From contig JAZNVW010000016.1 in NCBI GenBank assembly GCA_045593025.1, positions 44,537 to 108,536 on the forward strand: a stretch of DNA of 64,000 bases, written 5' to 3'. The notes beneath the pieces are model-generated. The model made no database searches. It was not told the origin of the DNA and saw only the letters and a program-made list of their open reading frames with translations. The stretch is from Ruminococcus sp. (lineage in GTDB: Bacteria > Bacillota > Clostridia > Oscillospirales > Acutalibacteraceae). Numbering within the stretch: position 1 is the first letter of the stretch; the number at the start of each line of letters is the position of its first letter. The translations under genes were made by a program, and so were the position numbers. Of this stretch, positions 38,594 to 64,000 are shown one piece after another.

Positions 38594-38646
38594 CGGCTGC
38601 GTATTGATATATACCCTAATTTAAGGGTTTTCTTAATTCCCATTAA

Positions 38647-46805: not shown

Positions 46806-47513
46806 TTAATTCACAAATAAAGCAATTGCCGAATGATTATCATTATTTTCAGGCATCACACGCTCTAACAAAGCTCTCATTTTCTTTAGCCAATCTTGCG
46901 AAGATTTCGAGCTGTTCAACAAACCAATCATTTCTTGTTCAGTAATATTTTCCCAGAAACCATCTGAACACAAAAGCAACGCATCACCTTGTTCCAGAGA
47001 GGAACTGGTCAAATCAACTTTAACCTTCTCTTTACTACCTAAAACTCGAATAAGTTTATTTCGATCCTTATGTCCCCTTATCTGCATTGCGTCAATTTCA
47101 CCCATCAAAACTGCCATTTGCGAGACACTATGATCCGTTGATTGAAATTTTATTGTGCCATTTCTAAAATGATACACCCTGGTATCCCCAACTGTCGCAA
47201 ACAAACAGTTATTTTCTTCTATCCATACGATAGAAATTGTTGTTTTCATTTTATTCTCTTGGTTTTGTTCTAAGATACTCATATTTGCTTTTTCGACAGA
47301 GTCTAAAAGCAACGATTCTGACAAAGGCATATTATGTAAGCAATTATTTATAGTTGTTGTAGCAAGTCTGGATGCAACTTCTCCCGAATCGTATCCACCT
47401 AGTCCATCTGCAACTATTGCCACCAACTGATTGCACCCTTCAATCAGACTCACAAAATCTTCATTATTTTTTCTACCGCCTACCGCTGAGTAGTATGATG
47501 CATCTATATTCAT
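46806..47513 (-). CDS. PP2C-family Ser/Thr phosphatase
   Basis: 235 aa with motifs GGRKNNEDF, VADGLGGYDSGEVAS, LLLCSDGFWE and DNHSAI. Confidence 0.9.
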   Translation of the reverse strand: MNIDASYYSAVGGRKNNEDFVSLIEGCNQLVAIVADGLGGYDSGEVASRLATTTINNCLHNMPLSESLLLDSVEKANMSILEQNQENKMKTTISIVWIEENNCLFATVGDTRVYHFRNGTIKFQSTDHSVSQMAVLMGEIDAMQIRGHKDRNKLIRVLGSKEKVKVDLTSSSLEQGDALLLCSDGFWENITEQEMIGLLNSSKSSQDWLKKMRALLERVMPENNDNHSAIALFVN

Positions 47514-47546: not shown

Positions 47547-48356
47547 TCATTTGTTTTTTATAAAAACAGCAACATTGCAATTGTACTTTTCAGAAAGTTC
47601 TCTTTCCATTTCTTCCGCTAACTCGCTTACATATTCATATTTGTCGTTTTCATAATCATCATTAGGAATATTACCATTTTCATCGTATTCAATACCATAT
47701 GAAATTTCAAATACCAAAGAATCGTTAAAAGCTCTCATTCTGTTTATGGCTTTATAATCATAGATAATCTCATAGACATCATCATTAGATGTGTCTAACT
47801 TAACAAAAATGATATTTTTCCATGTTTCCTCAACTATTGAAATAATGTCTTTAGTAATGGTTAATTGATTTTGATCATTTACTGATGAGAAAAACACCTC
47901 TAATTGCTCATCTGATAATCTTTCAATATAGGCATTATTTCTAATACTGATATTGCACCGCCCACAAGATCCAATTTTGCTGTACACTGAAACATCAACT
48001 TGAGGGAAATTGCTTGAATAATCATCAAGTTTCTTTTGAAAGTCGTCAATTGAAGCAATAGAATTAAGATAAAAATTCATAGTTGCTAAATATGCCGCCT
48101 GTATCTTTTGATATTTGCTTTCCTTAATTGTCTCAAAAACAACACCCTTCTTCTTTGCATGATCAATATCATGTCCCAAAGGATAAATGTTATTTGCCTC
48201 GTCTATATCCAACGGAAAAATTTGCAATGTACATATCACATTAGAACTCTCCTTTATACATCCTTTATTGACACTAAAAAATTCTACCATTACACCGAGA
48301 ACAAGAAATAAAATTATAAAACAAAAAACGGTTATTCTAAGTGTAATTCTATTCAT
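47547..48356 (-). CDS. hypothetical N-terminally anchored protein (candidate immunity/accessory protein)
   Basis: 269 aa with one N-terminal TM helix (ITVFCFIILFLVLGVMVEFF). Its start overlaps the stop of the upstream papain-like effector by 4 nt. No family recognised. Confidence 0.4.
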   Translation of the reverse strand: MNRITLRITVFCFIILFLVLGVMVEFFSVNKGCIKESSNVICTLQIFPLDIDEANNIYPLGHDIDHAKKKGVVFETIKESKYQKIQAAYLATMNFYLNSIASIDDFQKKLDDYSSNFPQVDVSVYSKIGSCGRCNISIRNNAYIERLSDEQLEVFFSSVNDQNQLTITKDIISIVEETWKNIIFVKLDTSNDDVYEIIYDYKAINRMRAFNDSLVFEISYGIEYDENGNIPNDDYENDKYEYVSELAEEMERELSEKYNCNVAVFIKNK

Positions 48357-49468
48357 GAGTTATACCTTGATTGCTGAAATTCAATTCTCATATTTTCATC
48401 GAAATCATCAGGATCAATGTAATACGCCCCCCCCCAAGACGAAACCTTATACATTTTTTTCCCATTAATTGTCGAAACACCTGTAATCACCATAGCATGA
48501 CCACCATCACGTGTGTCAACAAGATTTCCTTCATGATTACGAAGTCGCAAAGGACTAATTGCAACAACAATTTCGCCTTGTTCAGACAATTCTTCATAAT
48601 TATCGACTGTTACATCTAAATTAATTATATCAACTTTAATTTTTTTGACTTTTAAATAGTTTTCCCACCTTGTCTCACTGGTTCTTTTTGTTAATCCATA
48701 TGTTTCTCCATCAATTTCACCCTCAACACAATAAAAATCCAACATAACTAAATCATAATTTGGATAACCATTTTCATCGTACATTGAAAACCCAAAATCT
48801 TTTGCAAATAAGTCCTCTCGTCCAATATACTGACCAAAAATGGTATTAACCCAAGCCATATAATTACAGCCTTCACTATTCATTTCCGAAAGCAAATCAG
48901 CAATTCTCTCATCAGGTAATTCCGGAAAATATCTTCTTACAATACTTCGCAATTGATCTCTATCTCCGCGACCCCAACGTCTTGCAGCAGATCCCTGATT
49001 ACCTCCATAATGCAACCCATCATCATGAGTATATGATGGATTGATAAATCCGGTTAATATGTTCTCCAATTTAACCCAAACCGCATCAAAAGTCGTAATG
49101 TTATCTGTTGAAAACCCATTATTGTTTGGGTTGGCTATATTAGATAATATATGTATACACTTATGAAATTGTGTTATTGCTTGTAGTAGAGCATCAAATG
49201 CATTATTATAAGAGGAATCAATAATATTTACATTCGTAAAAATATTTTCAATATTTGACCGAGTGGTATTATTTTTATCAATTACTTTTCTATGATATTC
49301 ATTCACGTTACTTATGTAATTCTTTATATTTAATACTCCTATCCACGACTGAAAATCATACCATCTGTCTCCAAACCAATCAGTAAAATCACTAAGTTTC
49401 TCATTCTCAACTTCCGAAACCATTTGCAGTAATTCACCTTTTGATCTTTCCGAAAAATCCCTATACAT
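48353..49468 (-). CDS. putative T7SS effector: shared N-terminal domain + C-terminal papain-like cysteine peptidase
   Basis: The N-terminal ~115 aa are paralogous to ORF 49533..51065. The C-terminus has NSEGCNYMAW (Cys), DGGHAMVITG (His) and VSSWGG, the order and context seen in papain-fold peptidases. Confidence 0.5.
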   Translation of the reverse strand: MYRDFSERSKGELLQMVSEVENEKLSDFTDWFGDRWYDFQSWIGVLNIKNYISNVNEYHRKVIDKNNTTRSNIENIFTNVNIIDSSYNNAFDALLQAITQFHKCIHILSNIANPNNNGFSTDNITTFDAVWVKLENILTGFINPSYTHDDGLHYGGNQGSAARRWGRGDRDQLRSIVRRYFPELPDERIADLLSEMNSEGCNYMAWVNTIFGQYIGREDLFAKDFGFSMYDENGYPNYDLVMLDFYCVEGEIDGETYGLTKRTSETRWENYLKVKKIKVDIINLDVTVDNYEELSEQGEIVVAISPLRLRNHEGNLVDTRDGGHAMVITGVSTINGKKMYKVSSWGGAYYIDPDDFDENMRIEFQQSRYNS

Positions 49469-49532: not shown

Positions 49533-51065
49533 TTAAATATTAAGCGTTAAATCCTCTAGTCGCTCAATTTCTTCCTCAATTTTTGCTATCATATCTCTCG
49601 TGCATTGTTTATCTTCTGAACTAGCAAAAATCGCACTCACGCTATCCAACGCATTTTCCATAACTGTAATAATTGCTTTGTATTCTTGTATTTTTGCTGC
49701 TTTCGCAAGTTCAAAATATGTTCTACATTGTTCTGCATCATAATTGGAATAATCCCCAGAGTTAACTTTATTTCGATAGTACTCATATTTCTCAACTAAT
49801 CCATAGGAGTATTGCTGTGTAGAATATACACTTCCAATATTGTCTGTAGTATCTGTTAGTCCAATTACCGAAGATGATATATCCTTTGTGTCAATAAACA
49901 AGTCCAACAAAGGCAAGGCTTTATCTATACCCTTATCAATACCCATTTGGGCAAGCTTTTCAATACCATCATGTGCTGCCGATATGTACTGATTGCGATA
50001 TTCCCACAACAAGGAATCCACAACCTTGTTTACAGTTTCGTTATCATATCCTCCATCTATTAACGCTTTTTTTATTGCTTCAAGATACTTCACATCTTCA
50101 GTATAATCATTAAATACTTTAGTAATCATTTGAGTAGAAATGTCATAAATATCAACTGCATCACTATAAGCCCCCAAAGTGCTTTCCACATCTTTGGTCA
50201 TACTTTGAATAAACTGTAAGTTTTCTGATTGACATAACCATTTTAAGTAATCTGACTCTGTTATATCTTTTATGTCAATCTCTAATATTTCTGCTATCTT
50301 TGCCTCAGTAATATCTTCACCCAAATCAAGTGTAAGTCCAATAATCTTCTCACCAATCTTAAATTCTTCTGGTTTTAGTGCTTTTGTGTATTCTTGGGTA
50401 AAATCGGAAGCAACATGCTTATTATCTAAAACTTGTGAAATCAACTCTAAGATACTCTTTTTCACAATTGTCTCATTAACATCATCACCAATATCAAACA
50501 ACAAGCTCGTCATATTCTCAATCCAGTTAGCTGTCCAACCAACAGCTATTGCATCTAAGTCAGTATTACGCGAGTCAATAAATATACCTGTAAAATCAAC
50601 ACCAAGCAATTTGGGGCATACTTCCTCTGTAGGTGCAGTAAAATACTCCATAGACTCAGTAAGGAGTTCGGATAATTCTGCCATGGAATCCGATATAAAC
50701 TCCCCTCTAAAACACCCATTTGACGGATTAACAAGTTGGCACAACTCTTCCATATATCGCTTAATTATGCCAAACTGTGTATTATTCTGCTGTAATATTG
50801 TAGAATATCTACCATCAAGATTAGTAACTGCATTAAATATTCTGCCTATAGTATCTTTTGTCGTGTTGTTCTTATCAATGACTTTTCTATGATACTCATT
50901 AACATTATCAATATAGTTTTTGATATTTAATACACCAATCCACGATTGAAAATCATACCACCTATCTCCAAACCAGTCAGTCAAATCATGGAGTTTCTCA
51001 TTTTCAACATCAGAAACCATTTGAAGCAATGTATTATAGGAATTCTCAGAAAAATCTCTATACAT
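49533..51065 (-). CDS. putative T7SS substrate/effector: shared N-terminal domain + long helical C-terminal region of unknown function
   Basis: 510 aa. The first ~80 aa are about 80% identical to ORF 48353..49468 (MYRDFSE..DWFGDRWYDFQSWIGVLNIKNYI.NVNEYHRKVIDKNNTT). There is no TM helix and no recognised catalytic motif. Confidence 0.5.
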   Translation of the reverse strand: MYRDFSENSYNTLLQMVSDVENEKLHDLTDWFGDRWYDFQSWIGVLNIKNYIDNVNEYHRKVIDKNNTTKDTIGRIFNAVTNLDGRYSTILQQNNTQFGIIKRYMEELCQLVNPSNGCFRGEFISDSMAELSELLTESMEYFTAPTEEVCPKLLGVDFTGIFIDSRNTDLDAIAVGWTANWIENMTSLLFDIGDDVNETIVKKSILELISQVLDNKHVASDFTQEYTKALKPEEFKIGEKIIGLTLDLGEDITEAKIAEILEIDIKDITESDYLKWLCQSENLQFIQSMTKDVESTLGAYSDAVDIYDISTQMITKVFNDYTEDVKYLEAIKKALIDGGYDNETVNKVVDSLLWEYRNQYISAAHDGIEKLAQMGIDKGIDKALPLLDLFIDTKDISSSVIGLTDTTDNIGSVYSTQQYSYGLVEKYEYYRNKVNSGDYSNYDAEQCRTYFELAKAAKIQEYKAIITVMENALDSVSAIFASSEDKQCTRDMIAKIEEEIERLEDLTLNI

Positions 51066-51088: not shown

Positions 51089-51358
51089 TTAACCATTCAC
51101 AATCTTGTCTGCGGCTTTGCTATCACTTGAAACATAGCTATCTCGTGTGTTTTGTAAAAACAGGATTGTATTCGACACAAGTTCTCCAAAACAATTATTT
51201 AGGGATTCATACATTGATGCAATCTCCTCTAATTTATTAACAGTTTTACCGCCACCAACAGTAACGGGTGGCGTAGTGCTTACTAAGTCACACCTTGTTT
51301 GCAAGCTTCTTAATCTTCCTATGGAATTATTTATTTCATCAATATTAATATTAATCAT
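51089..51358 (-). CDS. small helical T7SS-associated protein (DUF3130/TIGR04197-like, tentative)
   Basis: 89 aa with a helix, a Gly/Thr-rich turn (TTPPVTVGGGKT), then a second helix. It lies immediately upstream of the effector genes. Confidence 0.4.
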   Translation of the reverse strand: MININIDEINNSIGRLRSLQTRCDLVSTTPPVTVGGGKTVNKLEEIASMYESLNNCFGELVSNTILFLQNTRDSYVSSDSKAADKIVNG

Positions 51359-51378
51359 AGTTCAAAACTCCACCTAAT

Positions 51379-51666
51379 TTAAAATAAGAATTGATCTTCT
51401 ATATCAACACGCGTTAAAAATCCTTCTATTTCTCGTTTCGCATCTCTAGAAACAAGACCAATTTGACTTTTTAGCTGATTAACATATGAAATGTATGTAC
51501 TCAGTGCATTTGAAACTTCGCCGCTCATAATGGCTTTAGCTTTTACTTCTTCTAAAATTTCAACATAATCTACAATAAATGTATCAAGTTGTTCACCCTG
51601 TGACTCGAAATAGGCACCCATACTTCTACAATATTCATCATCAATAATAAGTTCGTTACTAGCCAT
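51379..51666 (-). CDS. small helical T7SS-associated protein
   Basis: The ATG at 51666 follows AAGGAGGGAG. 95 aa, predicted all-helical and acidic. Confidence 0.4.
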   Translation of the reverse strand: MASNELIIDDEYCRSMGAYFESQGEQLDTFIVDYVEILEEVKAKAIMSGEVSNALSTYISYVNQLKSQIGLVSRDAKREIEGFLTRVDIEDQFLF

Positions 51667-51683
51667 AATTCTCCCTCCTTCTT

Positions 51684-52268
51684 TTAAGTTGCATAGCGCA
51701 ATTGGTTTTCCCAATACACTTTACGTTGTCTGCGATAAGACAATTTTGAATTCGTATCATTGAGTTGACTATTACATGAGTTAATATCTCGTCTTGTCCT
51801 ATCTATTTGTCCATTTACAGAATTAATGCGATTATTCAAATCATCTATTTCTCTTTGTATAGATGAAATTTTATTATTAACCACATTAATTGCTGAAGTT
51901 AATCCATTATATGCATGCCTATATTCAGAACCTGATAACAACGACTGCATTCCATTAACATACGATGAAATAAACTTAAGGTTCAGTTGTCTAGAAAAGT
52001 GCACATTAAATCTGCTAATACGTCTAGATTGTCTATCAGCAAACTGTGTCTGTAAATTTTGATACTTACTTTTAAGATGACTTAATTCATCAATTTGATT
52101 TCTTAGTCCACTAATCTGATTCCTCAAACTATCAATTTGTGAATAGCACTGATTCAACTGAGAATTATAAGTATTAATTCTATCATTCAATCTACCAATA
52201 TCTCTTAAATATTGGTTAATTAAATTTTCGTTGTATCGAATATTATTACGAACCTCTTGCTTTGTCAT
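51684..52268 (-). CDS. coiled-coil protein (YwqH/DUF5082-like, tentative)
   Basis: 194 aa with N/Q/R/I-rich heptad repeats at both ends (LNDRINTYNSQLNQCYSQIDSLRNQISGLRNQIDEL; IQREIDDLNNRINSVNGQIDRTRRDINSCNSQL). Confidence 0.45.
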   Translation of the reverse strand: MTKQEVRNNIRYNENLINQYLRDIGRLNDRINTYNSQLNQCYSQIDSLRNQISGLRNQIDELSHLKSKYQNLQTQFADRQSRRISRFNVHFSRQLNLKFISSYVNGMQSLLSGSEYRHAYNGLTSAINVVNNKISSIQREIDDLNNRINSVNGQIDRTRRDINSCNSQLNDTNSKLSYRRQRKVYWENQLRYAT

Positions 52269-52411: not shown

Positions 52412-52720
52412 TTAACCCTTGCGTGTGAACTGACTATTGATATTACGATCAGTTTCTTCAAGGATTTTAGCGGTTTCTCTGAGGTTATGTGCGATTTCCT
52501 CGAATAACTCTACAGCATTTGTAAAGGTTTTAGTTTTTATCTCGTTATATCTACTTCTGTAGCCTTCCATTGCTGCACCTTCCCATTCACCTTCAAGTGT
52601 AACAAGAAGCCTGTCCATATTGCTGATTAAAGTTCTCATCTCTTCTGCACGTCTATCGACCTCACCAGCTCTTGTCCTCATCACTTCAGGTTTCATTCTG
52701 ATAGTACCAGAACCAGCCAT
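52412..52720 (-). CDS. esxA: WXG100-family secreted protein (EsxA-like)
   Basis: About 100-aa helical hairpin with a central W-E-G (LEGEWEGAAMEGY). The ATG at 52720 is 8 nt after AAGGAGG. It lies directly downstream of essC. Confidence 0.85.
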   Translation of the reverse strand: MAGSGTIRMKPEVMRTRAGEVDRRAEEMRTLISNMDRLLVTLEGEWEGAAMEGYRSRYNEIKTKTFTNAVELFEEIAHNLRETAKILEETDRNINSQFTRKG

Positions 52721-52780
52721 AATATTCACCTCCTTATAATTTATTCTATAGGAAATTAGTCTCCGACCAATTTTCTAACA

Positions 52781-55700
52781 TCAAGAATCGGGTTGTTCTT
52801 TTGCTTTTACCAACTTAAGTTTAACAACATTATTATCATGAATATAGTAAGCATCTCCAACCTCAAGGCGTTTTCGATTATTTCGTATATCTTCATACGG
52901 AACATCAAAGGGTTTCAGATTATCAAGATCCTCAAAGAACAAAAGATGTTGTTCCTGCTTAACAGTTCTTATAGGTTCCGGAGCATCATATGACACAGAA
53001 GAATTAGAATAATTCGAGAAGATAATAGCGACATTCATACCTTTAAAACGAGATACAATATCATTAAACATGTCTAGAATGCTATAATCTTCACTAATCT
53101 TTTTGGCTACATCATTGTTTTGAATTATCATCAAAAGCAATTCAGAATTACCATTAATGCTTCCATTCTCGATCAAAGTGTTATATCGTTCTGTTAAAAC
53201 GGAATGCCATTCCTGTATAATATCAGTAACCTTATCAACACCTAAAGAATATGTAGTTACTAACTTACTTTCTTTAAAGCACTCAAGTTTTCTAGTAACA
53301 TCATCAAACAATACAACTTTCGCAGGATTGGTTTCAATATTGGATTCCAGAACATCGAATAAATACGCTAAGAAGTTTTTATGACCAGTGTTCGCTTTAC
53401 CGCACAGTCCTATGATTCCTAACTGAGAAATGTCTAAATAATAAGGCTCAACATCTTGATAGGTTAAACCAACAGGAACTTTGTATCCTTCCGATTGTGC
53501 ATCGAACTCATATTTTATCGCATCCATTGTTAAAACTGTCGGAATATAAGGAATTTGTTTAGCTTTTATGCCAATATATTTATCATTAATATTAATAACA
53601 AACTCTTGCATTTGCTGAACTCGTGCATACTCTTTTTCACCTTCAAAAGCTAAGTAGGTTTGACACTCAAGGATTCTTTTATCGACCTCTAATATGCAAC
53701 GTCCAGGCACCTCATCGGGTTTTAATGTTACATGATCAAATAACGCAGAGTATTCTGATGTATCATTACAACACAAGGCCATCTTGTTAGCAAAGTTAGA
53801 TAAATATCTATATCCGATACCAGTTGTCTGAGAGTTTGTAACAATAGTAGATATACCCACCGATAATCCTTCTCTTAAAATATTCAACAAGCTGTCATCA
53901 TCTGCAAGATACAACTCGATAAGAGCTGTTAGATTATCAATCATTAAATATATATGAGGTAGGTCACTATATCCAGCTTCAACATACGAAGAATATGAAC
54001 TAACGCCTACAGAAACGAGTCTTTCTTTTCTCGTTAATATTTCCGAAAATAAAAGCTTAAACATATTCTTTAGCTTTTCATCATCAGAAGAGCACACAAC
54101 CCCACCAACATGATTTAAATTCTCAAAGTTTTTCAATACCATTGAACCAAAATCTAGAATATAAATGGTAGATTCTTTGGGAGACGATGTTGAGGCAATC
54201 GTTCTTATTAAACTTTGTAAAATATTAGTTTTACCATTTTGTGCTGATCCTAAAACAAATGTATTTTTATTATCAAAATCCATTGATGCTACTCCCTGAA
54301 TTTGGTTGTCCGGATCATCGTAAATACCCAGGCCTATCAAGCTATTTTTCTTCATATTGGCTTTTGAATATTCAATATGTTTTGGTAGTGATGGCAAACA
54401 AATATTAGGCAACCTACTTATACCTTTTACTCCACAATAGTTATGTACATACTCGACGATTGATTCTAACTGTGTAAAAACAGAACCAGATGTCTTTTTC
54501 TTCTTTTGAACATAAATCGGGGTTCGTTTTCCAGCCGCACTCACCTCAAATAATGCAAATTCTTTAATTTCGGCTTCTGCCATTTTTTCAGGAGCACCAC
54601 TATACGCAGACTGAAACAATTCGAACACCTCGTTGTTTCCCACCTGTAAATAAGCGCGACCAGGTTCCTTTATTTCCGCCGCCAATGGAGATTTAATAAC
54701 CTCATTACTATCCTCTTGGCTTTGAACTTTTAAACACAGTTTAAATTTAGAGTTACTCCAGATCTGTTCATCGACCTGACCAGATGGCTTCTGTGTTGCT
54801 AATATTAAGTGAACACCTAAACTTCGACCAATTCGTGCTGCTGATATCAACTCTTTCATAAACTCTGGTTGTTCAGCTTTAAGTTCAGCAAACTCATCTA
54901 CAATAAGTACTAAATGAGGGATTGGAACCGATACTTTTCCTGCTTTATACTTTTGTATATATTTATCTATATGGTTTACCTCAGCCTCAGCAAATAGCCT
55001 TTGTCTCTTCTGCAACTCAGCTTTTATAGATTTAAGAGAACGATCAATCTCTTTTCCATCAATATTTGTAATTGCGCCAAGCATATGTGGCAAATCCTTA
55101 AACTGATTGGCCATTCCACCGCCCTTAAAGTCAATAATCACAAATGCTACTTCGTAAGGATGGAATATGGTTGCAATTGACAATATGTAGGTTTGTAAAA
55201 TCTCGGACTTACCCGATCCAGTGGTACCTGCAACCAAACCATGAGGGCCATGTGCTTTATCATGCAAATCCAAAGAGATAATTCCTGTTTTTGTAACACC
55301 TATTGGTGCCGCCATAGACTGAAAAACTTTAGAATTTGCCCATCTTTGATCAAGGTTCAAATCGTCAACCATTAATATTCCAAACATTTCAAAAAGTGAA
55401 ATGTTTTTTGTAAGAGCACCCTCTAACGATATTTCCTCTGTAAATATTGGTGCTAATAAGTTTACGATTTTTTTTGCATCTTCATCGCTTATTCCATTAT
55501 AAGTAAAATCAACTGTATCGTCCTGATTATTAGAATTGACTAATCTGCCCTTATTATAAGAATCAACAAAAATCAACTGTGAGCATCCTTGCGGAATTTT
55601 GCTTTTTTCTTCCGCCATAAATACAAACGTCGCTGCAAGGTCTTTTAGTTTGTTTACATAGTTGGATAACGGATGTGTTTGAAAGCCACATTCATCATAG

Positions 55701-57295
55701 AAGAATACTATAATATGAGGCGCTTTATCAGCTTGCGAATTTTGTGAACGTTGTGTTAGTTCATTATACAAATAATCGAACGTACGACTCTTACTTTCAT
55801 CGTCAACAGCGATATTTCTATATGATGTTGCTTCGTTATATACATGAGGTAAAAATCTTAACCAACTAATCTTAGGAGCATTTTCTTTTGCAGCTACAAA
55901 GAACAATTGTACATCAGTATAATACTGGCGAGCACAAATATCGATTATTAGGTTCTTCATGATAGAAAAACGACAATCCATATTTCCAATTATACCAATT
56001 GCGTTACTTTCTCGAAACTCACAAACAACGGGTGCATTTTCTAATGCTGAAAATTCCTGAGACACCTGTTGTGGTATTAACTGTAAATCATCTTCAACTT
56101 CTAAGCATTCTTGTTTTTTGTATTCAACATCTCTAGATGGCGTAACGCTACCTAATCCCAATCGCACTTGCAGGAAATCATCATCAAATATTCGTCTATC
56201 AAACAAATCACTAGAATAATCTATGAATCTCGTATACTCCGTTGATATATCTAAATACATCTGTTCTAAAGCTTGTCTTTCTTCATCTCTATATTTAGAT
56301 ATATCCGAACGCTTTCTTTCTATATATTTATTGTATTTTTCTATTCTCTCTTCGTTTTGTTTTTTAAACTCAACCTTATTTTGAATCGCGGTCATAACAG
56401 CTGTTACAATTGCCATTCCTCCAGAAATAAGGCTAAACACCACCATAGTACCGCCCATAGAAGCCATCAAGCCAGACGCCACTAACATACCTAGTGATGG
56501 TAAAAGACTCATCAACAAATTAGATTTTGCTTTTTGCGGTTTTGGAGGCGGATCAAGAACCTCGATTTTATCCGTATTTAAGACTGTCCTAATTCTAGTA
56601 TTACGACTAAATTTCGGATAGTTATTAGGGTTCGGATAATCAGTATAGGATAGTCCGTTTACAAATAAGTCTCCTCTAATTTCTGTCCACAAAATGTCAT
56701 TCTTATAGTAAAAATTAAAATCAGATATTGAGAAAAAATCCCCGTTCTTCACTACGCATCCGCTTATAGCTCTTGAACCATTATAGTAAACACCATATGT
56801 CGCTTTCCTGATTTGCAAATCAAAGCCTTTTGAGGATTTTTGTAATTCTATAACATCATCTTTAACAAAAGCACTCTTAAGCTTCACCTGACAATAATCA
56901 TCTGTTCCTATTCTAATCGAAGAACAACCAACAAGACTAATCGCTCTTTCATACTTAATTTTGCTATTGTTAAAATCAATTAGAAATTCTATTGTGAAAG
57001 CATCTATATTCGATTCTACGTATCTAATCGTAAATAAATCCCCATGCTTTGGAGAAAGTGCCATAAGCTTTCTACTATCTCCTACTGAAAAATAAAAGCT
57101 ATCAGAACACAACAAAGTCCACTCATTATTCTTCTTAATAAAATTAAGTTCAATTGGTTCAAAGAACAAATCTCTGTGTAATCTAAAATCACAACCTACA
57201 CTTGTACCTAATTTCGCTTCATTTTTACCAATAGGCAACTCAAATTCTTTATATAAATTTTTGTTTGATATTATTATTTTATATCTGTACTCCAT
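52781..57295 (-). CDS. essC: type VII secretion FtsK/SpoIIIE-family ATPase EssC
   Basis: 1504 aa with N-terminal FHA-like repeats and two TM helices (LLMSLLPSLGMLVASGLMA.., VVFSLISGGMAIVTAVMTAI). Three P-loop domains are present: GTTGSGKSE with IVDEFAEL, GSAQNGKTN, and the degenerate GKANTGHKN. Confidence 0.95.
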   Translation of the reverse strand: MEYRYKIIISNKNLYKEFELPIGKNEAKLGTSVGCDFRLHRDLFFEPIELNFIKKNNEWTLLCSDSFYFSVGDSRKLMALSPKHGDLFTIRYVESNIDAFTIEFLIDFNNSKIKYERAISLVGCSSIRIGTDDYCQVKLKSAFVKDDVIELQKSSKGFDLQIRKATYGVYYNGSRAISGCVVKNGDFFSISDFNFYYKNDILWTEIRGDLFVNGLSYTDYPNPNNYPKFSRNTRIRTVLNTDKIEVLDPPPKPQKAKSNLLMSLLPSLGMLVASGLMASMGGTMVVFSLISGGMAIVTAVMTAIQNKVEFKKQNEERIEKYNKYIERKRSDISKYRDEERQALEQMYLDISTEYTRFIDYSSDLFDRRIFDDDFLQVRLGLGSVTPSRDVEYKKQECLEVEDDLQLIPQQVSQEFSALENAPVVCEFRESNAIGIIGNMDCRFSIMKNLIIDICARQYYTDVQLFFVAAKENAPKISWLRFLPHVYNEATSYRNIAVDDESKSRTFDYLYNELTQRSQNSQADKAPHIIVFFYDECGFQTHPLSNYVNKLKDLAATFVFMAEEKSKIPQGCSQLIFVDSYNKGRLVNSNNQDDTVDFTYNGISDEDAKKIVNLLAPIFTEEISLEGALTKNISLFEMFGILMVDDLNLDQRWANSKVFQSMAAPIGVTKTGIISLDLHDKAHGPHGLVAGTTGSGKSEILQTYILSIATIFHPYEVAFVIIDFKGGGMANQFKDLPHMLGAITNIDGKEIDRSLKSIKAELQKRQRLFAEAEVNHIDKYIQKYKAGKVSVPIPHLVLIVDEFAELKAEQPEFMKELISAARIGRSLGVHLILATQKPSGQVDEQIWSNSKFKLCLKVQSQEDSNEVIKSPLAAEIKEPGRAYLQVGNNEVFELFQSAYSGAPEKMAEAEIKEFALFEVSAAGKRTPIYVQKKKKTSGSVFTQLESIVEYVHNYCGVKGISRLPNICLPSLPKHIEYSKANMKKNSLIGLGIYDDPDNQIQGVASMDFDNKNTFVLGSAQNGKTNILQSLIRTIASTSSPKESTIYILDFGSMVLKNFENLNHVGGVVCSSDDEKLKNMFKLLFSEILTRKERLVSVGVSSYSSYVEAGYSDLPHIYLMIDNLTALIELYLADDDSLLNILREGLSVGISTIVTNSQTTGIGYRYLSNFANKMALCCNDTSEYSALFDHVTLKPDEVPGRCILEVDKRILECQTYLAFEGEKEYARVQQMQEFVININDKYIGIKAKQIPYIPTVLTMDAIKYEFDAQSEGYKVPVGLTYQDVEPYYLDISQLGIIGLCGKANTGHKNFLAYLFDVLESNIETNPAKVVLFDDVTRKLECFKESKLVTTYSLGVDKVTDIIQEWHSVLTERYNTLIENGSINGNSELLLMIIQNNDVAKKISEDYSILDMFNDIVSRFKGMNVAIIFSNYSNSSVSYDAPEPIRTVKQEQHLLFFEDLDNLKPFDVPYEDIRNNRKRLEVGDAYYIHDNNVVKLKLVKAKEQPDS

Positions 57296-57306
57296 AATAT
57301 CACCCC

Positions 57307-57561
57307 TTATTCCGTGTAATAAATAACACTTCCATTACGAATTCCATATTCCTTTAGCGTTTTGTTACCTCTAAGAAGTGCTATTGGATTTTCAGATTTC
57401 AAATAGCATTTCTTAATGTCTGTTGTATCGATATTCAGTCTATAAGCCGTATTAAGTCCAATCACCAACTCTGTTGCAGTTATATCAAGTGGCACTTCAA
57501 TATCAACACTGGTATTATTCTTAGCGTTATTAAAAATCACAATTGCTTTATCATTATTCAT
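57307..57561 (-). CDS. esaB: YukD/EsaB ubiquitin-like T7SS protein
   Basis: 84 aa: VDIEVPLDITATELVIGLNTAY...TLKEYGIRNGSVIY fits the beta-grasp YukD pattern. It lies directly upstream of essC. Confidence 0.8.
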   Translation of the reverse strand: MNNDKAIVIFNNAKNNTSVDIEVPLDITATELVIGLNTAYRLNIDTTDIKKCYLKSENPIALLRGNKTLKEYGIRNGSVIYYTE

Positions 57562-57572
57562 ATATATACCCC

Positions 57573-58631
57573 TTAAATAATCAAATAGGCAATTTTTTGT
57601 ATATCTTTATCGTTTGATAAATCGTTAATAGATATATCATCATAAGCGGAGTAGTGTCCTATATAATCAACAACACTGTATTTTTTATTAATCGCAGGAG
57701 AGATCAAATAATTAGGTGCATCATCAACAAAGTTATTACACACAAAAATAAACTTATCACTCGTAACCCCATTCAAATTCGATACTAGTAGATTTGTTGC
57801 TTTTACCGAATACTTGCTCTGTGAAGTAACAACAACAACTTTATCTGCTATATCAATCAAACGAACTTGTTCCTCATCAAATGCCGACTCTACATCAATT
57901 ACTATACAATCGTATTCACCGCTGTTTTTTGCAGAAACAGCAATGTTTTCATACACACTAAAATCTATGCCATAAGACATCAACGCCGTTTTAAAGGGTG
58001 GTAAATAGCTAAACTCTTCTTTTCTCACCACATGCTTGATTGCCGAGTATATATTAGTGTTTTCCATTGTCAATTTTGCATACACATCCGAAGCTGCAAT
58101 TGGCTCTTGATTCACAAGCAAAGACTGAAAACATTGCAGTCTTGCGGCATTTATATACAGAACTCTTTTATAATTCTTACTCAAATACGAACAAATACCA
58201 AGTGCAACAGTAGTTTTACCTACACCTCCGGAAGCCGAGCATACGAGTGCTATCTGCGTTTCCTTGTGTTCAACATCCTGCAATTCTAACGAGGATGAAC
58301 CTTTTCCGCTAATAACATTAAAAATCTCTTTAAGACTTGTATATTTATATATAAATGTTATATTTGATGGTTTTTCTATTTGCTGTGAAGGTTGTTCAGT
58401 CATAACAAAGATATTACCTATATTATGTAAACTAAGCGATGAAGAGTATAACTCTTCAGAAACAACCAAAATATCTACTTTTTGAGGAGCAGAAAAAACT
58501 TCATCAAAAAAAATCCTATCGGTTATTATTTCTAAATCAATATTATCATAATATTTTTCTATAAATCGTTGCTGCAAAGGTATTATGTACTTACTATCAG
58601 TATCAGCAATAATAATTCTTGGATTAACCAT
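57573..58631 (-). CDS. CpaE/TadZ-like protein: receiver-like N-domain + ParA/MinD-class ATPase
   Basis: The N-terminus (RIIIADTDSKYI...VDILVVSEELY) has a CheY-like topology. The Walker A is IALVCSASGGVGKTTVALG and the Walker B-like motif is CIVIDVES. Confidence 0.7.
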   Translation of the reverse strand: MVNPRIIIADTDSKYIIPLQQRFIEKYYDNIDLEIITDRIFFDEVFSAPQKVDILVVSEELYSSSLSLHNIGNIFVMTEQPSQQIEKPSNITFIYKYTSLKEIFNVISGKGSSSLELQDVEHKETQIALVCSASGGVGKTTVALGICSYLSKNYKRVLYINAARLQCFQSLLVNQEPIAASDVYAKLTMENTNIYSAIKHVVRKEEFSYLPPFKTALMSYGIDFSVYENIAVSAKNSGEYDCIVIDVESAFDEEQVRLIDIADKVVVVTSQSKYSVKATNLLVSNLNGVTSDKFIFVCNNFVDDAPNYLISPAINKKYSVVDYIGHYSAYDDISINDLSNDKDIQKIAYLII

Positions 58632-58647
58632 TGTTATTCACCCACTC

Positions 58648-59565
58648 TTATCCAATAATAACTTTAAACTCACTGTTGGCAAGTCGAACGATATCACCAT
58701 TTTTAATCAAAAAGATTTCACCTGACGACACTCTTTCTCCATTAATATAGGTTCCATTAACACTGCCTAAATCTGTAATACTATACCTACCGTTATGTTG
58801 CATTATTTTGCAATGTGAGCGACTTATCATTTTGTTATAAGGAACAACTCCATCTACAACGCCTTGCTTTTTACCTATAGTAAATTCATCTTTAGTAACA
58901 TATATTTCAAGAGGAAATGAAGGATTCAATGAAACTAACTTCATAACCATATTCTCTCTTACAACATCATCAGATTTATTGCCACCCTTAGAATCTGCAA
59001 AACCAGCAGTTTTTACTTTATTATAAAGATTTTCTAACGATATCAATCCATTTGACAAATCAGCAGCTAATTGAAAAGTCTGAGACGATGATAATGAAGG
59101 TATATTCTGAATAAGTTTTATCAAATTTGAGCGTAGTGTATTCTCAAATGAAGCAGTATCAACAAACAATCTTTTTGTTATAGGCAGATAAACCAATCCA
59201 ATTTTATAAGTTGCAGGATCAAAATATATTTGATTTAAGGAAAGATCTATGTTCTGACAAGATAAAAAACCATTACTTTTAACTGAAATTATGTCATCAA
59301 GCAAATTCTTTACAATATTTAAAAAAGTTTTAGAATCTAAAGAATACAAAACACTTTCAAGAGACTTATATCCATCGGTTAAATAATAAAGCTGAACTTT
59401 CCCATTAAACAATGCTTTTACACATTTAATAAATGTGCCGTCCTCCTGGCTTTGCAGAACTTTATACTCAGTTAAAGAAAAAATGTCATTTTCATTTATC
59501 ACATAAGCAAAATTTTCACCACACACCATTTCGCTCAAGACACCATTTTCAACTAAAACATTCAC
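58648..59565 (-). CDS. FHA-domain protein with an uncharacterised ~190-aa N-terminal domain
   Basis: The C-terminus (FTIGKK...ISRSHCKIMQHNGRYSITDLGSVNGTYINGERV) is a canonical FHA domain with the R/S/H/N core residues. The N-domain is not recognised, and there is no TM helix. Confidence 0.85.
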   Translation of the reverse strand: MNVLVENGVLSEMVCGENFAYVINENDIFSLTEYKVLQSQEDGTFIKCVKALFNGKVQLYYLTDGYKSLESVLYSLDSKTFLNIVKNLLDDIISVKSNGFLSCQNIDLSLNQIYFDPATYKIGLVYLPITKRLFVDTASFENTLRSNLIKLIQNIPSLSSSQTFQLAADLSNGLISLENLYNKVKTAGFADSKGGNKSDDVVRENMVMKLVSLNPSFPLEIYVTKDEFTIGKKQGVVDGVVPYNKMISRSHCKIMQHNGRYSITDLGSVNGTYINGERVSSGEIFLIKNGDIVRLANSEFKVIIG

Positions 59566-59640
59566 TAAGAATACCCCCTAAACCATTAAGCTGTTTATCA
59601 CAAGTTAAACTGTAAGAGCTTATAATTTAACTTCTAATAA

Positions 59641-59680
59641 ACAAATCTTTCCTCCCGTGCAGAGTAAATCTGCACGGGAG
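59641..59680 (-). terminator. putative (possibly partial) terminator after the PASTA kinase gene
   Basis: 11-bp stem CTCCCGTGCAG/CTGCACGGGAG. The downstream minus-strand tail GAAAGATTTGTTTATT is only moderately T-rich. Confidence 0.5.
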
Positions 59681-59712
59681 ACAAACATGTTAATCCAATT
59701 AGAAACACATAA

Positions 59713-62700
59713 TCAACCAGAATATTTAAACTGTGCTATCCAACCCCATTTTCCGTTATAATTTATGTATCCCCAAATGTAAGTTCCATCCCAATAGTTT
59801 CCATATACCGACAATGTTACACCTTGTCCTACCGTACCAAGCGAAGAATAACCGGTTCCCGCTCCAGAACGAATATTATAAGTTGTATTAGTTGTAAATG
59901 ATGGACTCTTAACCGTAACCCTACATTGAGCAGTATTTCCATTGTATGTCGTTACAGTTAAGTATGCGATATTAGAAGAAGTTGCAGTGGAAGATGTTGA
60001 ATCTGTTCCAACCGCACACACAACTCCACTACCATCCCACACATTGCCTTTTACATAAATTATTTTATTATCACTTGAGGACAGGCTCAATGAATGAGGT
60101 CTGTATACAGACGCACTATATGTTGCTTTTTGTGTTCCATTTAAATAAACATAAACAGATGCTGTCTTTGTTGTGTTATAGTCTATCAAACAAGGTGTTA
60201 CAGTAATAGTTGCTACATTACCACTTTGACTAACAGACGTTGTCACTACACTTGTATTACTACTAGAGGCAGTAACTTTGGTTGCAGAGGAATTTGTTGT
60301 AACTGTAAATTTCTTAGGTGTGCGATCCCATGAATGACTTACAGAGATACTAACCTCTTCACCAACATATACTGTACTTGAATAATCTGTTATTTCGATT
60401 CCAGTGTCAAGCACCTTGAATGAACCACTATAACTACTCATACTAACAATACTGTCGTTGCTTACACTAACAGTAAATGTCGTTGTTTTGCCTCCGTAAC
60501 TAACTGTAATTGTTTTTGTTCCGGAGGAAGAGAACCCACCTGTTGGCGAACAACTAAATCCGTTTGAAATTGTCTTTGTGGAACCATTATTATATTTAGC
60601 TGTTAATGTCAAACCTGAATCATTAAATGATTCGCCCACATAATACGAAGTCTTTGATGGTTTACTCTTAACTGTAATTGACGACAACTCAAGCTTTGAT
60701 ACAGATACAGTGAATGTTGTTGTTTTACCTTCATAAGTAACTGTAATTGTTTTAGTACCTGAAGAAGATAACGATGTTGGTGAACAACTGAATCCACTTG
60801 AAATTGTCTTAGATGTACCATTATTGTATTTAACAGTTAATGATAAACCCGAAGTGTTAAGCGTATCGCCTTCATAATACGAAGTTTTTGTAGGTCCACT
60901 CTTAACCGAAATAGAGGAAACAACCACATCTTCCACATACACTGTGAATGTTGTTGTCTTTCCTTCATAAGAAACCGTGATTGTTTTTGTACCTGATGAA
61001 GACAATGTTGTTGGTGAACAGCTAAAACCACTTGTTATGGTTTTTGTCGTTCCGTTGTTACACTTAACAGTTAGAGATAATCCGGATGTATTAAGTGTTT
61101 CACCCTTATAGTAGGATGTCTTTGTAGGTTTGTTATTAACTGATATAGAAGTAGGCTCAACCTTCTCAACATTAACTGTAAATGTTGTCGTAAATCCTTC
61201 ATAAGAAACCGTGATTGTTTTTGTACCTGATGAAGACAATGTTGTCGGCGAACAACTAAAACCACTTGTTATAGTTTTTGTTGTTCCATTGTTATACTTA
61301 ACACTCAAAGACAAACCAGAAGTATTAAGAGAATCCCCTTCATAGTAGGATGTCTTTGTAGGTTTGTTTTGAATACTTATAGAAATAGGATCTACTGATT
61401 TAACATTAACTGAAAATGTTGTTGTTTTACCATTGTAAGTTACTGTAATTGACTTTGTACCAGACGAAGATAACTTTGTTGGTGTGCAACTAAAACCAGT
61501 TGTAACAATTTTTGTTGTTCCATTATTATATGTTTCTGTTAAAGTCAATCCAGATGTATCGAGTGTATCACCCACATAATAAGATGTTTTTGAGGGATTA
61601 CTCTTAACAGATATATATGCTGGAAGAACTTTCTCAACGTTAACTGTAAACTTTGTTGTTTTACCCTCGTAACTTACCGAAATCGTCTGTGTTCCGGACG
61701 CCGTTAAAGTTGTCGGAGAGCAAGTAAAATCATTGAAAATAGTTTTTGAAGTTCCATCATTATATTTTGCAACAAGCGATAAACCTGATGCATTTAATGT
61801 ATCTCCCACAAAATAATCTGTTATACTAGGCTCTGTTCTAACTGAAATTTCAGTCACTACTATTTTAGTCCAATGAGCATACAAGGTTTGCGAAGAAGTG
61901 ATTTCTACCTTTGACGATGATGTAATATTAGAACCGCCACTCGCAGAGGTATACCAACCATCAAAGATGTAACCACTTCTTATAGGTGTTGGCAATGTTC
62001 CGTATGTAGATGCATATACAACATTTTTACTTGATGTCGCTACACTACCACCATTTGCATTAAAGGTTACTGTATATCCCTTTTCACTCCAGTGAGCATA
62101 CAAGGTTTGATTGCCTGCTGTTGTATACTTTGATTCCGAAAGGATTTCAGTTCCGCCGCTCGCCGATGTATACCATCCAACAAATGTATATCCTGAACGA
62201 CTAACAGTTTCAAGGTCACCATATTTTGACCCATAAGAAACTTTCTTAGATGAGGGTGCTGCTCCACCACCATTTGTATTAAAAGACACTGTATATTCAT
62301 TAGCCGTCCATTGGGCATACAATGTATGGCTTGAAGGAGTTGTTACGATTGTACTTGAGGTAACCTTAACACCGCCTGACTTAGCGGAATACCAACCTTT
62401 AAATGAATATCCTTCTCTTTCAGGAGTAGGAAGCTCGCCATAACCTTCATTCAAATAAAGCGTATTACTGCCGTTGCTAACAGAACCTCCATTAGCATTA
62501 AAAGAAACGTTAATGGGCTGTTTTCCTTTGCTCACATATATAATAATTGTTGAATTCGGCAACTGAGCTGTGCCAGCCTTTGGCGACTGACTAATAACCT
62601 TACCTGCGGCAACTGTAGAATCATAGTTTTCCAGCACTGTTACTTTAAATCCTTGTCCCTTAAGAATACTAGTGGCATCAGATTCGGATTTTCCTACTAC

Positions 62701-64000
62701 ATTTGCTACATCAATTGTTTCACGTCCACTTGAAACAGTAAGCGTTATTTCGTCTCCTCGCTTTACTGCTGTTCCTAACGCTGTACTCTGACTAATAATT
62801 TTTCCTTCTTCTACGTTATCCGTCTTTTTGTATTCAACATAAACAACTAAACCTTTGCTTGTAAGCATAGCTTCTGCACTCTCTAAGCTATCTCCTACAA
62901 CATCGGGCATTTCGAATGCTGATGGGCCAAGAGAAATGGTCAGAGTGATTTTTGTGCCTTCCTCAACTTCATCTCCCGCATTAATACTCTGTGCAATTAC
63001 AGAACCCAACGCAACATTATCATCGTATTTTTCTACGATTTCAGGCTCTGAAAGTCCAGCTTTAAGCAACTTTGCAATCGCATCATCTTTTGAATCCCAG
63101 ATTACATACGGAACTGTGGAGACTCCATTTTCTGGCGATACAACATCCTTACCACTACTTACCATAAGTTCAACGGTTCCATTGATATCCATATAAGAAC
63201 CACCAACCGGAGTTTGGAGTATTATCTTTCCGGCAGGAATGTATTCTGATTCTATGGTTCCTTCTGCTGATGCAAGGAGTTGTCCTTCTTCAATTAATTC
63301 AAGTGCTTCATCCTTGTATAAACCTTCTACTTCCGGAACTACCACAATGCCCTCGGGAATTACAATCTCTTGAGTAAACTTTGAAAAATTAATAACACCA
63401 GTAACAAGCAAAAGTCCCAAGCAAACGATTATTACTAAAAGCGAAGGAATTAAAATCTTCAACCATAACGGCCAACTTAATCTGTCAATCAATTTAATTT
63501 TGCCATATATTCGTTTGGGTGGTGTTGGCGAAGTTAACTCTTGAATAAACGCTTCAATAGTTGGAGTTCTATCTTCAATTCTCACATTCAAAGCATTCAA
63601 GATAGCATTTTCACGAGATTTAGAAATCCCCTTGTTAAGCTTATGCGGATTAACCAAAACATCAGTACGCTTTGTTTCGTACTTAACACGCCTTTCCATC
63701 GCATCGGGAGGCGTTTCCCCTGTGACCATCCTGTATAATGTAGCAGCAAGAGAGTAAACATCCGTATGAGGGCCGTGGTCTCCCCTGCTTCTATATTGTT
63801 CTTCTGGTGAATATCCCTGCTTAATTACTACAGTCAAGCTTCTGCTGTGTGAAGTTGTCGCATAGCGAGAAGCACCAAAGTCTATGAGTTTAATCTCGCC
63901 ATCATCTGTAAGGAATATGTTATCGGGTGCAATATCCCTATGTAATATGCCCTCTGCATGAACAGCCTGTAATGATTCCATGACAGGCATCAGCATAGCT
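59713..64000 (-). CDS. PASTA-type Hanks Ser/Thr kinase (5' end outside window) with a greatly extended ectodomain
   Basis: The window starts mid-kinase (HRDIAPDNIFL, DFGAS, GYSPEEQ) and one TM helix follows (WLKILIPSLLVIIVCLGLLLV). About 4 PASTA units follow. Then come 3 Listeria-Bacteroides-type repeats (NANGGS...GY.F.GWY...LYA.W), 6 Ig-like repeats, a further beta-rich region and a C-terminal SH3b-like domain (YNIRSGAGTGYSSLG..). Confidence 0.9.
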   Translation of the reverse strand, partial: AMLMPVMESLQAVHAEGILHRDIAPDNIFLTDDGEIKLIDFGASRYATTSHSRSLTVVIKQGYSPEEQYRSRGDHGPHTDVYSLAATLYRMVTGETPPDAMERRVKYETKRTDVLVNPHKLNKGISKSRENAILNALNVRIEDRTPTIEAFIQELTSPTPPKRIYGKIKLIDRLSWPLWLKILIPSLLVIIVCLGLLLVTGVINFSKFTQEIVIPEGIVVVPEVEGLYKDEALELIEEGQLLASAEGTIESEYIPAGKIILQTPVGGSYMDINGTVELMVSSGKDVVSPENGVSTVPYVIWDSKDDAIAKLLKAGLSEPEIVEKYDDNVALGSVIAQSINAGDEVEEGTKITLTISLGPSAFEMPDVVGDSLESAEAMLTSKGLVVYVEYKKTDNVEEGKIISQSTALGTAVKRGDEITLTVSSGRETIDVANVVGKSESDATSILKGQGFKVTVLENYDSTVAAGKVISQSPKAGTAQLPNSTIIIYVSKGKQPINVSFNANGGSVSNGSNTLYLNEGYGELPTPEREGYSFKGWYSAKSGGVKVTSSTIVTTPSSHTLYAQWTANEYTVSFNTNGGGAAPSSKKVSYGSKYGDLETVSRSGYTFVGWYTSASGGTEILSESKYTTAGNQTLYAHWSEKGYTVTFNANGGSVATSSKNVVYASTYGTLPTPIRSGYIFDGWYTSASGGSNITSSSKVEITSSQTLYAHWTKIVVTEISVRTEPSITDYFVGDTLNASGLSLVAKYNDGTSKTIFNDFTCSPTTLTASGTQTISVSYEGKTTKFTVNVEKVLPAYISVKSNPSKTSYYVGDTLDTSGLTLTETYNNGTTKIVTTGFSCTPTKLSSSGTKSITVTYNGKTTTFSVNVKSVDPISISIQNKPTKTSYYEGDSLNTSGLSLSVKYNNGTTKTITSGFSCSPTTLSSSGTKTITVSYEGFTTTFTVNVEKVEPTSISVNNKPTKTSYYKGETLNTSGLSLTVKCNNGTTKTITSGFSCSPTTLSSSGTKTITVSYEGKTTTFTVYVEDVVVSSISVKSGPTKTSYYEGDTLNTSGLSLTVKYNNGTSKTISSGFSCSPTSLSSSGTKTITVTYEGKTTTFTVSVSKLELSSITVKSKPSKTSYYVGESFNDSGLTLTAKYNNGSTKTISNGFSCSPTGGFSSSGTKTITVSYGGKTTTFTVSVSNDSIVSMSSYSGSFKVLDTGIEITDYSSTVYVGEEVSISVSHSWDRTPKKFTVTTNSSATKVTASSSNTSVVTTSVSQSGNVATITVTPCLIDYNTTKTASVYVYLNGTQKATYSASVYRPHSLSLSSSDNKIIYVKGNVWDGSGVVCAVGTDSTSSTATSSNIAYLTVTTYNGNTAQCRVTVKSPSFTTNTTYNIRSGAGTGYSSLGTVGQGVTLSVYGNYWDGTYIWGYINYNGKWGWIAQFKYSG
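60463..61851 (-). repeat. six tandem ~231-bp (77-aa) Ig-like coding repeats inside the kinase gene
   Basis: Repeat unit is ..ISVKS.PSKTSYY.GD.L.TSGL.LT.KYNNGT.KTI.SGFSCSPT.LSSSGTKTITV.YEGKTTTFTV.V. Echo ORFs appear in another frame at 60609-61265. Confidence 0.8.

Follow-up and report, generated by a model that had tools for sequence, protein, structure and literature searches.

A soluble DUF6382-FHA protein with a predicted EssB-like pseudokinase fold and a candidate leader RNA at a type VII secretion locus of Ruminococcus sp.

The tsxJ-like gene described here, referred to as J, is located at positions 58648–59565 on the minus strand of a 64,000 nt stretch of DNA (the window) from contig JAZNVW010000016.1 of Ruminococcus sp. 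(Acutalibacteraceae). It stands at the head of the core genes of a type VII secretion system (T7SS) and encodes a soluble protein of 305 aa with an N-terminal DUF6382 domain and a C-terminal forkhead-associated (FHA) domain. The open reading frame (ORF) starts at a GTG codon, 8 nt after an AGGGGG ribosome-binding site. The N-terminal domain comprises residues 1–190 (positions 58996–59565, minus strand), of which residues 33–134 match the Pfam family DUF6382 (PF19909) at 30.6 bits (gathering cut-off 26.7). The FHA domain comprises residues 216–305 (positions 58651–58920, minus strand) and is supported by Pfam, by alignment and by Foldseek; the Pfam FHA family (PF00498) matches residues 229–295 with 58.8 bits. 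A match to Yop-YscD_cpl of 32.0 bits is slightly below the cut-off of 33.2. No hydrophobic or transmembrane segment is present in J, the Kyte-Doolittle mean over 19 residues peaking at 0.99. A first-pass annotation, made from the sequence alone, had described an ORF with a C-terminal FHA domain and no transmembrane segment; the ORF is real, and these statements are borne out by its ribosome-binding site, the Pfam score, the Foldseek fold match and the hydropathy values. Its statement that the N-terminal domain matches nothing recognisable does not stand: a hidden Markov model search of the domain against DUF families, suggested there as a check, retrieved PF19909.

The genes downstream of J, all on the minus strand, are in the order ParA/MinD-like ATPase, YukD, EssC and WXG100. 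The first (positions 57573–58631), referred to as V, encodes a TsfV-like P-loop ATPase of the ParA/MinD type that is extended N-terminally by about 125 aa. Residues 126–290 match Pfam AAA_31 and CbiA, and ParA/MinD matches in NCBIfam are weak. The first 125 aa, at the position of the TadZ-like receiver in TsfV, match no family. It is followed by a YukD/EsaB-like ubiquitin-fold protein (positions 57307–57561; Pfam YukD, 39.5 bits) and by the EssC ATPase (positions 52781–57295), which has two transmembrane segments and scores 1133.7 bits with TIGR03928, where the cut-off is 778.4. EssC also carries two degenerate N-terminal FHA-like domains. Both in the window and in 54 N-termini of the family these domains have GT or IG-x, with no GR and no correctly placed SxxH, and NG is found only in FHA2. 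The WXG100/EsxA-like protein is encoded at positions 52412–52729 (Pfam WXG100, 55.2 bits; TIGR03930). A Pfam scan of the ORFs of the locus between 43 and 64 kb gave no match to the YukC/EssB, EssA or EsaA families.

Two Hanks kinases and a PP2C phosphatase are encoded in the same gene string and on the same strand, as the first-pass annotation had noted. Immediately upstream of J (positions 59713–63996) is the 3' part of a gene for a membrane Hanks kinase, whose N-lobe lies beyond the end of the window. The partial product has a transmembrane segment at residues 173–208. Its extracellular part is unusually long, with four PASTA domains, three Listeria-Bacteroides repeats (Flg_new), six Big_3 Ig-like domains and a C-terminal SH3 domain (SH3_3). 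This protein may merge the roles of a kinase and of an Ig-like surface protein that are separately encoded in other loci. The PP2C (PPM) phosphatase gene (positions 46806–47513; Pfam PP2C_2, 55.7 bits) is directly followed by that of the second Hanks kinase (positions 45268–46791), which matches Pfam Pkinase (112.9 bits) and DZR, has no transmembrane segment and is cytoplasmic. It has cysteine-rich zinc ribbons at both the N-terminus (CYNC...CENC) and the C-terminus (DZR).

T7SS subtypes c to j were defined by Garrett, Higginson & Palmer in 2024 (Microlife uqae013, PMC11217815), who named the DUF6382-FHA proteins TseJ, TsfJ and TsjJ as T7SS components. J shares with these TsxJ proteins an N-terminal DUF6382 domain, a C-terminal FHA domain and a place in a T7SS cluster with WXG100, YukD and EssC. 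By its sequence it is a further member of this known but experimentally uncharacterised type, though at 305 aa it is shorter than TseJ (420 aa), TsfJ (468 aa) and TsjJ (508 aa). The published T7SSf consists of TsfA/B/C, the PP2C TsfF, TsfJ with two transmembrane helices, and TsfV, a cytoplasmic protein with a TadZ-like receiver domain and an ATPase domain whose gene is flanked by T7SS genes; no kinase is associated with it (PMC11217815). The core genes of the window, in the order J, V, YukD and EssC (J-V-B-C), fit this list, and a PP2C is also present. EssC is of the same type as well: the published frequencies of the FHA motifs GR, SxxH and NG (Table S1) are 0, 0 and 88% for TsfC and 98, 99 and 90% for TseC (PMC11217815), and the window EssC and its 54 relatives resemble TsfC in lacking GR and SxxH and keeping NG in FHA2, whereas the motifs are conserved in TseC. 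Because the core genes and the type of EssC fit T7SSf, the locus is classed by sequence as T7SSf-like. It departs from the published T7SSf by its short soluble J, which has neither of the two transmembrane helices of TsfJ, and by the two Hanks kinases in the gene string. It differs from T7SSb in that EssB/YukC, EssA and EsaA were unmatched among the ORFs scanned, while its EssC matches TIGR03928. T7SSe has the membrane kinase TseD, the PP2C TseF and the membrane proteins TseH/I/K (PMC11217815); the window encodes a membrane kinase and a PP2C, and no TseH/I/K-like genes were identified there.

Structural models give a candidate identity for the N-terminal domain. All structural conclusions on J refer to predicted models. 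The AlphaFold2 model of full-length J, built from a 66-sequence alignment, has a mean predicted local distance difference test (pLDDT) value of 93.8, with low confidence only at the interdomain linker (residues 195–201), the sequence of which is not conserved. A Foldseek search of the PDB with the full-length model gave matches to FHA domains only, so the N-terminal domain had to be modelled separately. This model is confident, with a pLDDT of 94.1 and a predicted template-modelling score (pTM) of 0.88. Its best match in the PDB is YukC/EssB of B. subtilis (6z0f; E 4.9e-6, TMq 0.64). The next matches are 9qks_C, which is chain C of the B. subtilis T7SSb core unit, and EssB of Geobacillus (4ano; TM-scores 0.60/0.56). 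The N-domain of TraF (8cba) is the third-best structural match (TM-score 0.57), and dozens of genuine protein kinases follow after the EssB and TraF structures. None of the HRD, DFG, glycine-loop, VAIK and APE motifs is present in the J N-domain, and the invariant residues of the DUF6382 family are mainly structural. Since the best structural match is YukC/EssB and the catalytic motifs are absent, DUF6382 is predicted to be a catalytically dead pseudokinase of the EssB type. Structure prediction had also been proposed in the first-pass annotation, which did not notice this fold. The assignment shifts the likely role of J from a free-standing phospho-reader to a subunit of the machine, given that its N-domain is modelled as an EssB-like pseudokinase.

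A link of the N-domain to EssB/YukC or to Pkinase was also sought at the level of sequence and was rejected. A Pfam scan of 40 aligned members of the J family found DUF6382 in all 40 N-domains and, at E values up to 5, no other family; there was no YukC-family match among them. A profile search of all PDB sequences with the N-domain gave no match at E values up to 10. In the article that defined the subtypes, a link between DUF6382 and the EssB fold is absent from the main text, and the supplement lists only a Foldseek hit of TsfJ to a 'Protein kinase domain-containing protein' (PMC11217815). This was the only paper mentioning DUF6382 found in a literature search, which also found no later use of the names TsxJ, T7SSe or T7SSf. 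The confident model that connects DUF6382 to the T7SSb pseudokinase YukC/EssB is presented here as new.

The comparison with EssB/YukC (6z0f, 4ano, 9qks) extends beyond the fold. Catalytic motifs are degraded in both, and both come from T7SS with YukD and an FHA-bearing EssC. Cryo-EM of the B. subtilis system places a dimer of the YukC pseudokinase at the FHA2 tip of YukB/EssC, with a contact that is mainly through the alphaC-helix of the N-lobe (residues 37–47), and with YukD stabilising the FHA domains (PMC12637312). In J, the helix at the position equivalent to this alphaC-helix, residues 31–38 (T-E-Y-K-V-L-Q-S-Q), is the best conserved segment of the protein. E33 to Q40 are invariant among 29 close homologues. 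Among 40 diverse members, T32, Y34, K35 and L37 are each kept by at least 37, and T32 by 38. The two proteins differ in that EssB has a single transmembrane helix and an extracellular domain, whereas J has neither and carries an FHA domain instead. An EssB-like fold is also present in the Gram-positive type IV secretion system of pIP501, where TraF has an N-domain already described as homologous to EssB (PMC13037476). TraF is, however, a protein of a different secretion system, is membrane-anchored and has no FHA domain.

The FHA domain of J has a canonical fold, with root-mean-square deviations of 1.4–1.8 Å to the FHA domains of GarA, FhaA, Rv0020c and DgcB (Foldseek). Alignment to solved FHA domains places G231-K232 at the canonical G-R position. 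S248-R249-S-H251 and N270-G271-T272 complete the pocket. The first-pass annotation had listed the pattern as G-R, S-x-x-H and N-G; the latter two motifs are confirmed, and the first is G-K. It had also named substitution of the residues that contact phosphothreonine as a finding that would count against its proposal, and here arginine is replaced by lysine, both in J and in most of the family, with the rest of the pocket kept. In the 66-sequence family alignment H251 and N270 are each present in 63 sequences and T272 in 65. Position 232 is K in 39 and R in 20, and position 248 is S in 49 and G in 16. The two positions co-vary: K+S is found in 39 sequences, R+G in 16 and the canonical R+S in 4. 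An independent set of 69 genome-derived copies of J has K+S+R in 53, R+G+R in 4 and R+S+K in 4. Both states can be seen in the published Fig. S4, where TseJ has IGK...ISRSH, and TsfJ and TsjJ have GR...GKLH (PMC11217815); the G-K...S-R-S-H pattern is common to TseJ and the J of the window. The alternation of the family between K+S and R+G, with canonical R+S rare, is a new observation from these alignments. The near-invariance of H251, N270 and T272 and the covariation of positions 232 and 248 imply that the pocket appears to be under selection, yet it is not strictly canonical. Positions S/G248, R249, H251, N270 and T272 of J are also far better conserved than those of the degenerate EssC FHA domains. 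Phosphothreonine binding by this domain is plausible on these grounds.

The spacer between the stop codon of the kinase gene and the start codon of J is 147 nt and has a minimum free energy of −48.7 kcal/mol (z −6.2). It contains a structured 5' leader (positions 59580–59689, minus strand), which scores 88.1 bits with a covariance model and folds into two hairpins. P1 is GC-rich (approximately positions 59681–59651). P2 is long and AU-rich (approximately positions 59644–59591) and has a conserved G·G mismatch flanked by A-U pairs. The element is kept upstream of J across J proteins that are 40–60% identical, regardless of the preceding gene. Covariation was analysed with 35 sequences. RNAalifold gives 27 base pairs, 24 of which show compensatory changes. 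Paired cells amount to 91.9%, compared with 36–43% when the partners are slid; double-change cells number 165, compared with 31–55; and the covariation score is 0.575, compared with 0.08–0.16. None of 500 shuffles reaches the observed value on any measure. In the window, and likewise in 42 other loci (e.g., L014:9867-9980 and L005:9869-9982), the covariance model matches the J-sense strand immediately before J; 7 of these 42 were outside the seed. No match was found elsewhere in 1.28 Mb of related loci, and where the antisense strand echoes a matched site the echo is much weaker.

An Rfam scan of the spacer gave a best E-value of 0.066, with all matches far below the gathering scores. There is no U-tract after P1 or P2, and a scan of positions 59400–59900 for consensus promoters and terminators found neither on the J strand. 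The sole promoter-like match in this interval is on the opposite strand and is no commoner than in shuffled sequences. The leader is a candidate for a previously undescribed cis-regulatory RNA of T7SS operons, judged by its sequence covariation. Candidate roles are a protein-binding site, an RNase III site or a ligand-sensing leader. The presence of a conserved leader RNA directly upstream also supports the earlier view that J heads a regulatory unit.

The J family comprises 704 clusters at 50% identity, most of them of about 300 aa. A scan of species-representative genomes found J homologues in 72 loci, the best match being just 60% identical. The hosts are Oscillospiraceae, Acutalibacteraceae, Lachnospiraceae, Clostridium, Erysipelotrichales and a few Bacilli. 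The order J, ParA-like ATPase, YukD and EssC is kept, as far as the sequence extends, in every one of the 69 species-level loci with J and V, and WXG100 is often next after EssC. J-V-B-C loci are also present in metagenome-assembled genomes labelled Gastranaerophilales (Cyanobacteriota), Bacteroides or Muribaculaceae (L006, L043 and L050). A Firmicutes-type T7SS is unexpected there and suggests binning errors or horizontal transfer.

The genes upstream of J are more variable. Forty-nine loci have at least 9 kb of sequence upstream of J; a Hanks kinase is present in 38, a PP2C in 37 and both in 35. The claim that an FHA protein, Hanks kinases and a PP2C are grouped at a T7SS locus thus holds well beyond the window. 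Another new finding is that a kinase and a PP2C usually accompany the T7SSf-like cores in which J is soluble. A stricter rule, that a J without transmembrane segments is always accompanied by a kinase, was rejected: 11 of the 49 loci with soluble J have no kinase within 10 kb upstream of J, and TsjJ appears with a hydrophobic stretch (Fig. S4), yet T7SSj has a kinase (PMC11217815). A PASTA/Big_3 kinase adjoins J upstream, as in the window, in three loci (L005/L008, L007 and L024), with homologues of 1385–1677 aa. These three served as analogues for what lies past the end of the window. In L005/L008, two PP2Cs, a second kinase and one more FHA protein are encoded further upstream. Many other loci have upstream of J a long TseJ-like DUF6382-FHA protein, a PP2C, a kinase, two small proteins and a giant Ig-like protein. 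An example is L001:1-10915, where the TseJ-like protein is 409 aa and the Ig-like protein 2036 aa. By sequence, this upstream set resembles the accessory genes of T7SSe, here placed before a core of the T7SSf-like type. Two DUF6382-FHA paralogues per locus were observed in L001, L006, L023, L034, L039, L048, L058, L071 and L077. One is long and TseJ-like (350–410 aa, FRIGKERSY...ISRSH) and is encoded beside the PP2C, the kinase, the two small proteins and the giant Ig-like protein; the other is the short J before the ATPase, YukD and EssC.

Kinase, phosphatase and FHA protein are also encoded together with a secretion machine in the type VI secretion system (T6SS), i.e., PpkA/PppA/Fha1 (TagH) and the TssL-Fha pair of Agrobacterium, where the logic is that of a post-translational switch for assembly. 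Control of T7SS by threonine phosphorylation has been explicitly proposed by analogy with T6SS (PMC11217815). For this reason the reading of the J locus as a phospho-switch, plausible by analogy and already published, is not a new idea. The first-pass annotation had stated that the arrangement mirrors the PpkA/PppA/Fha1 switch. As a functional analogy this can be kept; as a statement of family membership it cannot. J was rejected as a TagH/Fha1 homologue, the score with TIGR03354 being 39.1 bits against a cut-off of 120.25. The comparison is a functional analogy only, because the TagH model matches J solely over the FHA domain (model positions 19–103 of 420). J also differs from Fha1 in that its second domain is a predicted pseudokinase and in the lysine at the FHA arginine position. 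A precedent for combining a pseudokinase, a kinase and an FHA domain is found in mycobacteria, where the MviN pseudokinase, the Hanks kinase PknB and FhaA regulate an envelope machine (Gee et al. 2012, as outlined in PMC12599244). In that outline the pseudokinase and the FHA domain are on separate proteins and act in peptidoglycan synthesis, whereas J is a fusion at a T7SS locus. What the present analysis adds to the published proposal is the EssB-like assignment with a docking model, the coupled pocket states, the association of soluble-J cores with kinase and PP2C, and the leader RNA.

The reading favoured here is that J is a soluble EssB-like adaptor on EssC in a T7SSf-like system, and that its FHA domain reads a phosphothreonine mark. 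It is regarded as about as likely to be right as wrong. J would take the place of the membrane pseudokinase EssB, which is unmatched at the locus. Its N-lobe, probably through the invariant helix 31–38, would dock on the degenerate FHA2 of EssC, as the YukC alphaC-helix does on FHA2 of YukB. Its FHA domain would bind phosphothreonine that the Hanks kinase or kinases of the locus write and the PP2C removes, thereby coupling a phosphorylation signal to the assembly or activation of the EssC machine. The observed basis is the domain architecture, the predicted fold, the conservation of the FHA pocket and the synteny with EssC, YukD, the ParA-like ATPase, kinases and PP2C; that J contacts EssC, that it binds phosphothreonine and which partner is phosphorylated are inferred. 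A fuller version, in which a soluble pseudokinase-FHA fusion replaced EssB, recruitment of this EssB equivalent to EssC, and with it assembly of the machine, is phosphothreonine-dependent through a wall-sensing PASTA kinase and the PP2C, and the core operon is under the leader RNA, is doubtful as a whole.

Several points weigh against the adaptor reading. The arginine of G-R is a lysine in J, so phosphothreonine binding is not to be assumed, and the 11 loci without a kinase count here as well. The PASTA kinase upstream might sense the cell wall in general and have no part in secretion. The N-domain has no detectable sequence similarity to EssB/YukC or Pkinase, and its structural match to EssB is moderate (TM-score ~0.6, root-mean-square deviation ~5 Å) and comes from a predicted model. 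Some of the same observations favour a possible but less probable alternative, in which J is a structural subunit independent of phosphorylation, its FHA domain is a plain interaction module like those of EssC and of YscD of type III secretion systems, and the kinases and PP2C regulate other things, such as the cell wall or transcription. Besides the lysine found in most of the family and the loci without an upstream kinase, the Yop-YscD_cpl score little under its cut-off is in keeping with such a module, as is the report that the FHA domains of T7SSb EssC function without phosphothreonine (PMC11217815; PMC12637312). However, the far better conservation of the J pocket relative to that of EssC argues for more than a plain interaction surface, the coupled K+S and R+G states suggest a maintained phosphate pocket, and kinase and PP2C occur together in 35 of the 49 loci.

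Phosphorylation could also act on J itself. As a kinase substrate and a switch of the GarA/OdhI type, J would capture its own phosphothreonine with its own FHA domain and so open or close the EssC-binding surface of the pseudokinase. FHA proteins beside Hanks kinases are commonly substrates, GarA and OdhI are among the closest FHA matches, and the protein has two domains joined by a flexible linker of low pLDDT (residues 195–201); in addition, 38 of 40 sequences have T32, where the invariant helix starts. Yet the sequence of the linker is not conserved and J has no N-terminal ETTS-like tail, and this switch is considered improbable. A chance position beside the T7SS, with J as a general signalling FHA protein of the PASTA-kinase module like actinobacterial FhaA/FhaB, would be in keeping with its location directly downstream of the PASTA kinase in the window. 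It is highly improbable, and is disfavoured because the synteny of J with T7SS genes is conserved: V, YukD and EssC follow J everywhere, whereas the upstream gene varies, being a kinase in three loci and a giant Ig-like protein or others elsewhere. The conserved leader RNA between J and the upstream gene and the match of the N-domain to a T7SS pseudokinase also argue against it.

Other features of the locus lie further downstream. On the minus strand, genes for small helical proteins (YwqH-like, DUF5344; positions 51089–52268) precede those for a 510-aa protein (positions 49533–51065) and a 371-aa protein (positions 48353–49468). The first ~70 aa of these two proteins are nearly identical (MYRDFSE...HRKVIDKNNTT) and the rest is fully divergent; neither has a Pfam or NCBIfam match. 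Downstream of them, on the same strand, is a 269-aa protein with an N-terminal hydrophobic segment (positions 47547–48356). The layout looks like a polymorphic T7SS toxin pair plus partner and immunity genes. The G+C content drops from about 0.42–0.47 to 0.32–0.35 over the T7SS region (approximately positions 38600–62000). This block starts at a large serine recombinase (positions 38647–40266), followed by DinG-like helicase, sigma-70-like and IrrE-like proteins, and to its left is ordinary chromosome with PolA, alanine racemase, PEPCK, TsaD, FtsH-like and FeoB genes. The T7SS locus may be part of an integrated island.

In gut Clostridia, LXG-type toxins are delivered by T7SSb-like systems, whose activation is little understood. 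TsxJ as an EssB-like pseudokinase-FHA fusion is a structural hypothesis both for the assembly of T7SS that have no EssB and for the point at which a phospho-signal enters. As the J family is large, with 704 clusters and 72 species-level genomes, the mechanism would apply broadly in the gut microbiota. The leader RNA is a separate, well-supported lead towards a new cis-regulatory element. If true, phosphothreonine-dependent recruitment of an EssB equivalent and a leader RNA specific to T7SS operons would represent two new layers of T7SS regulation.

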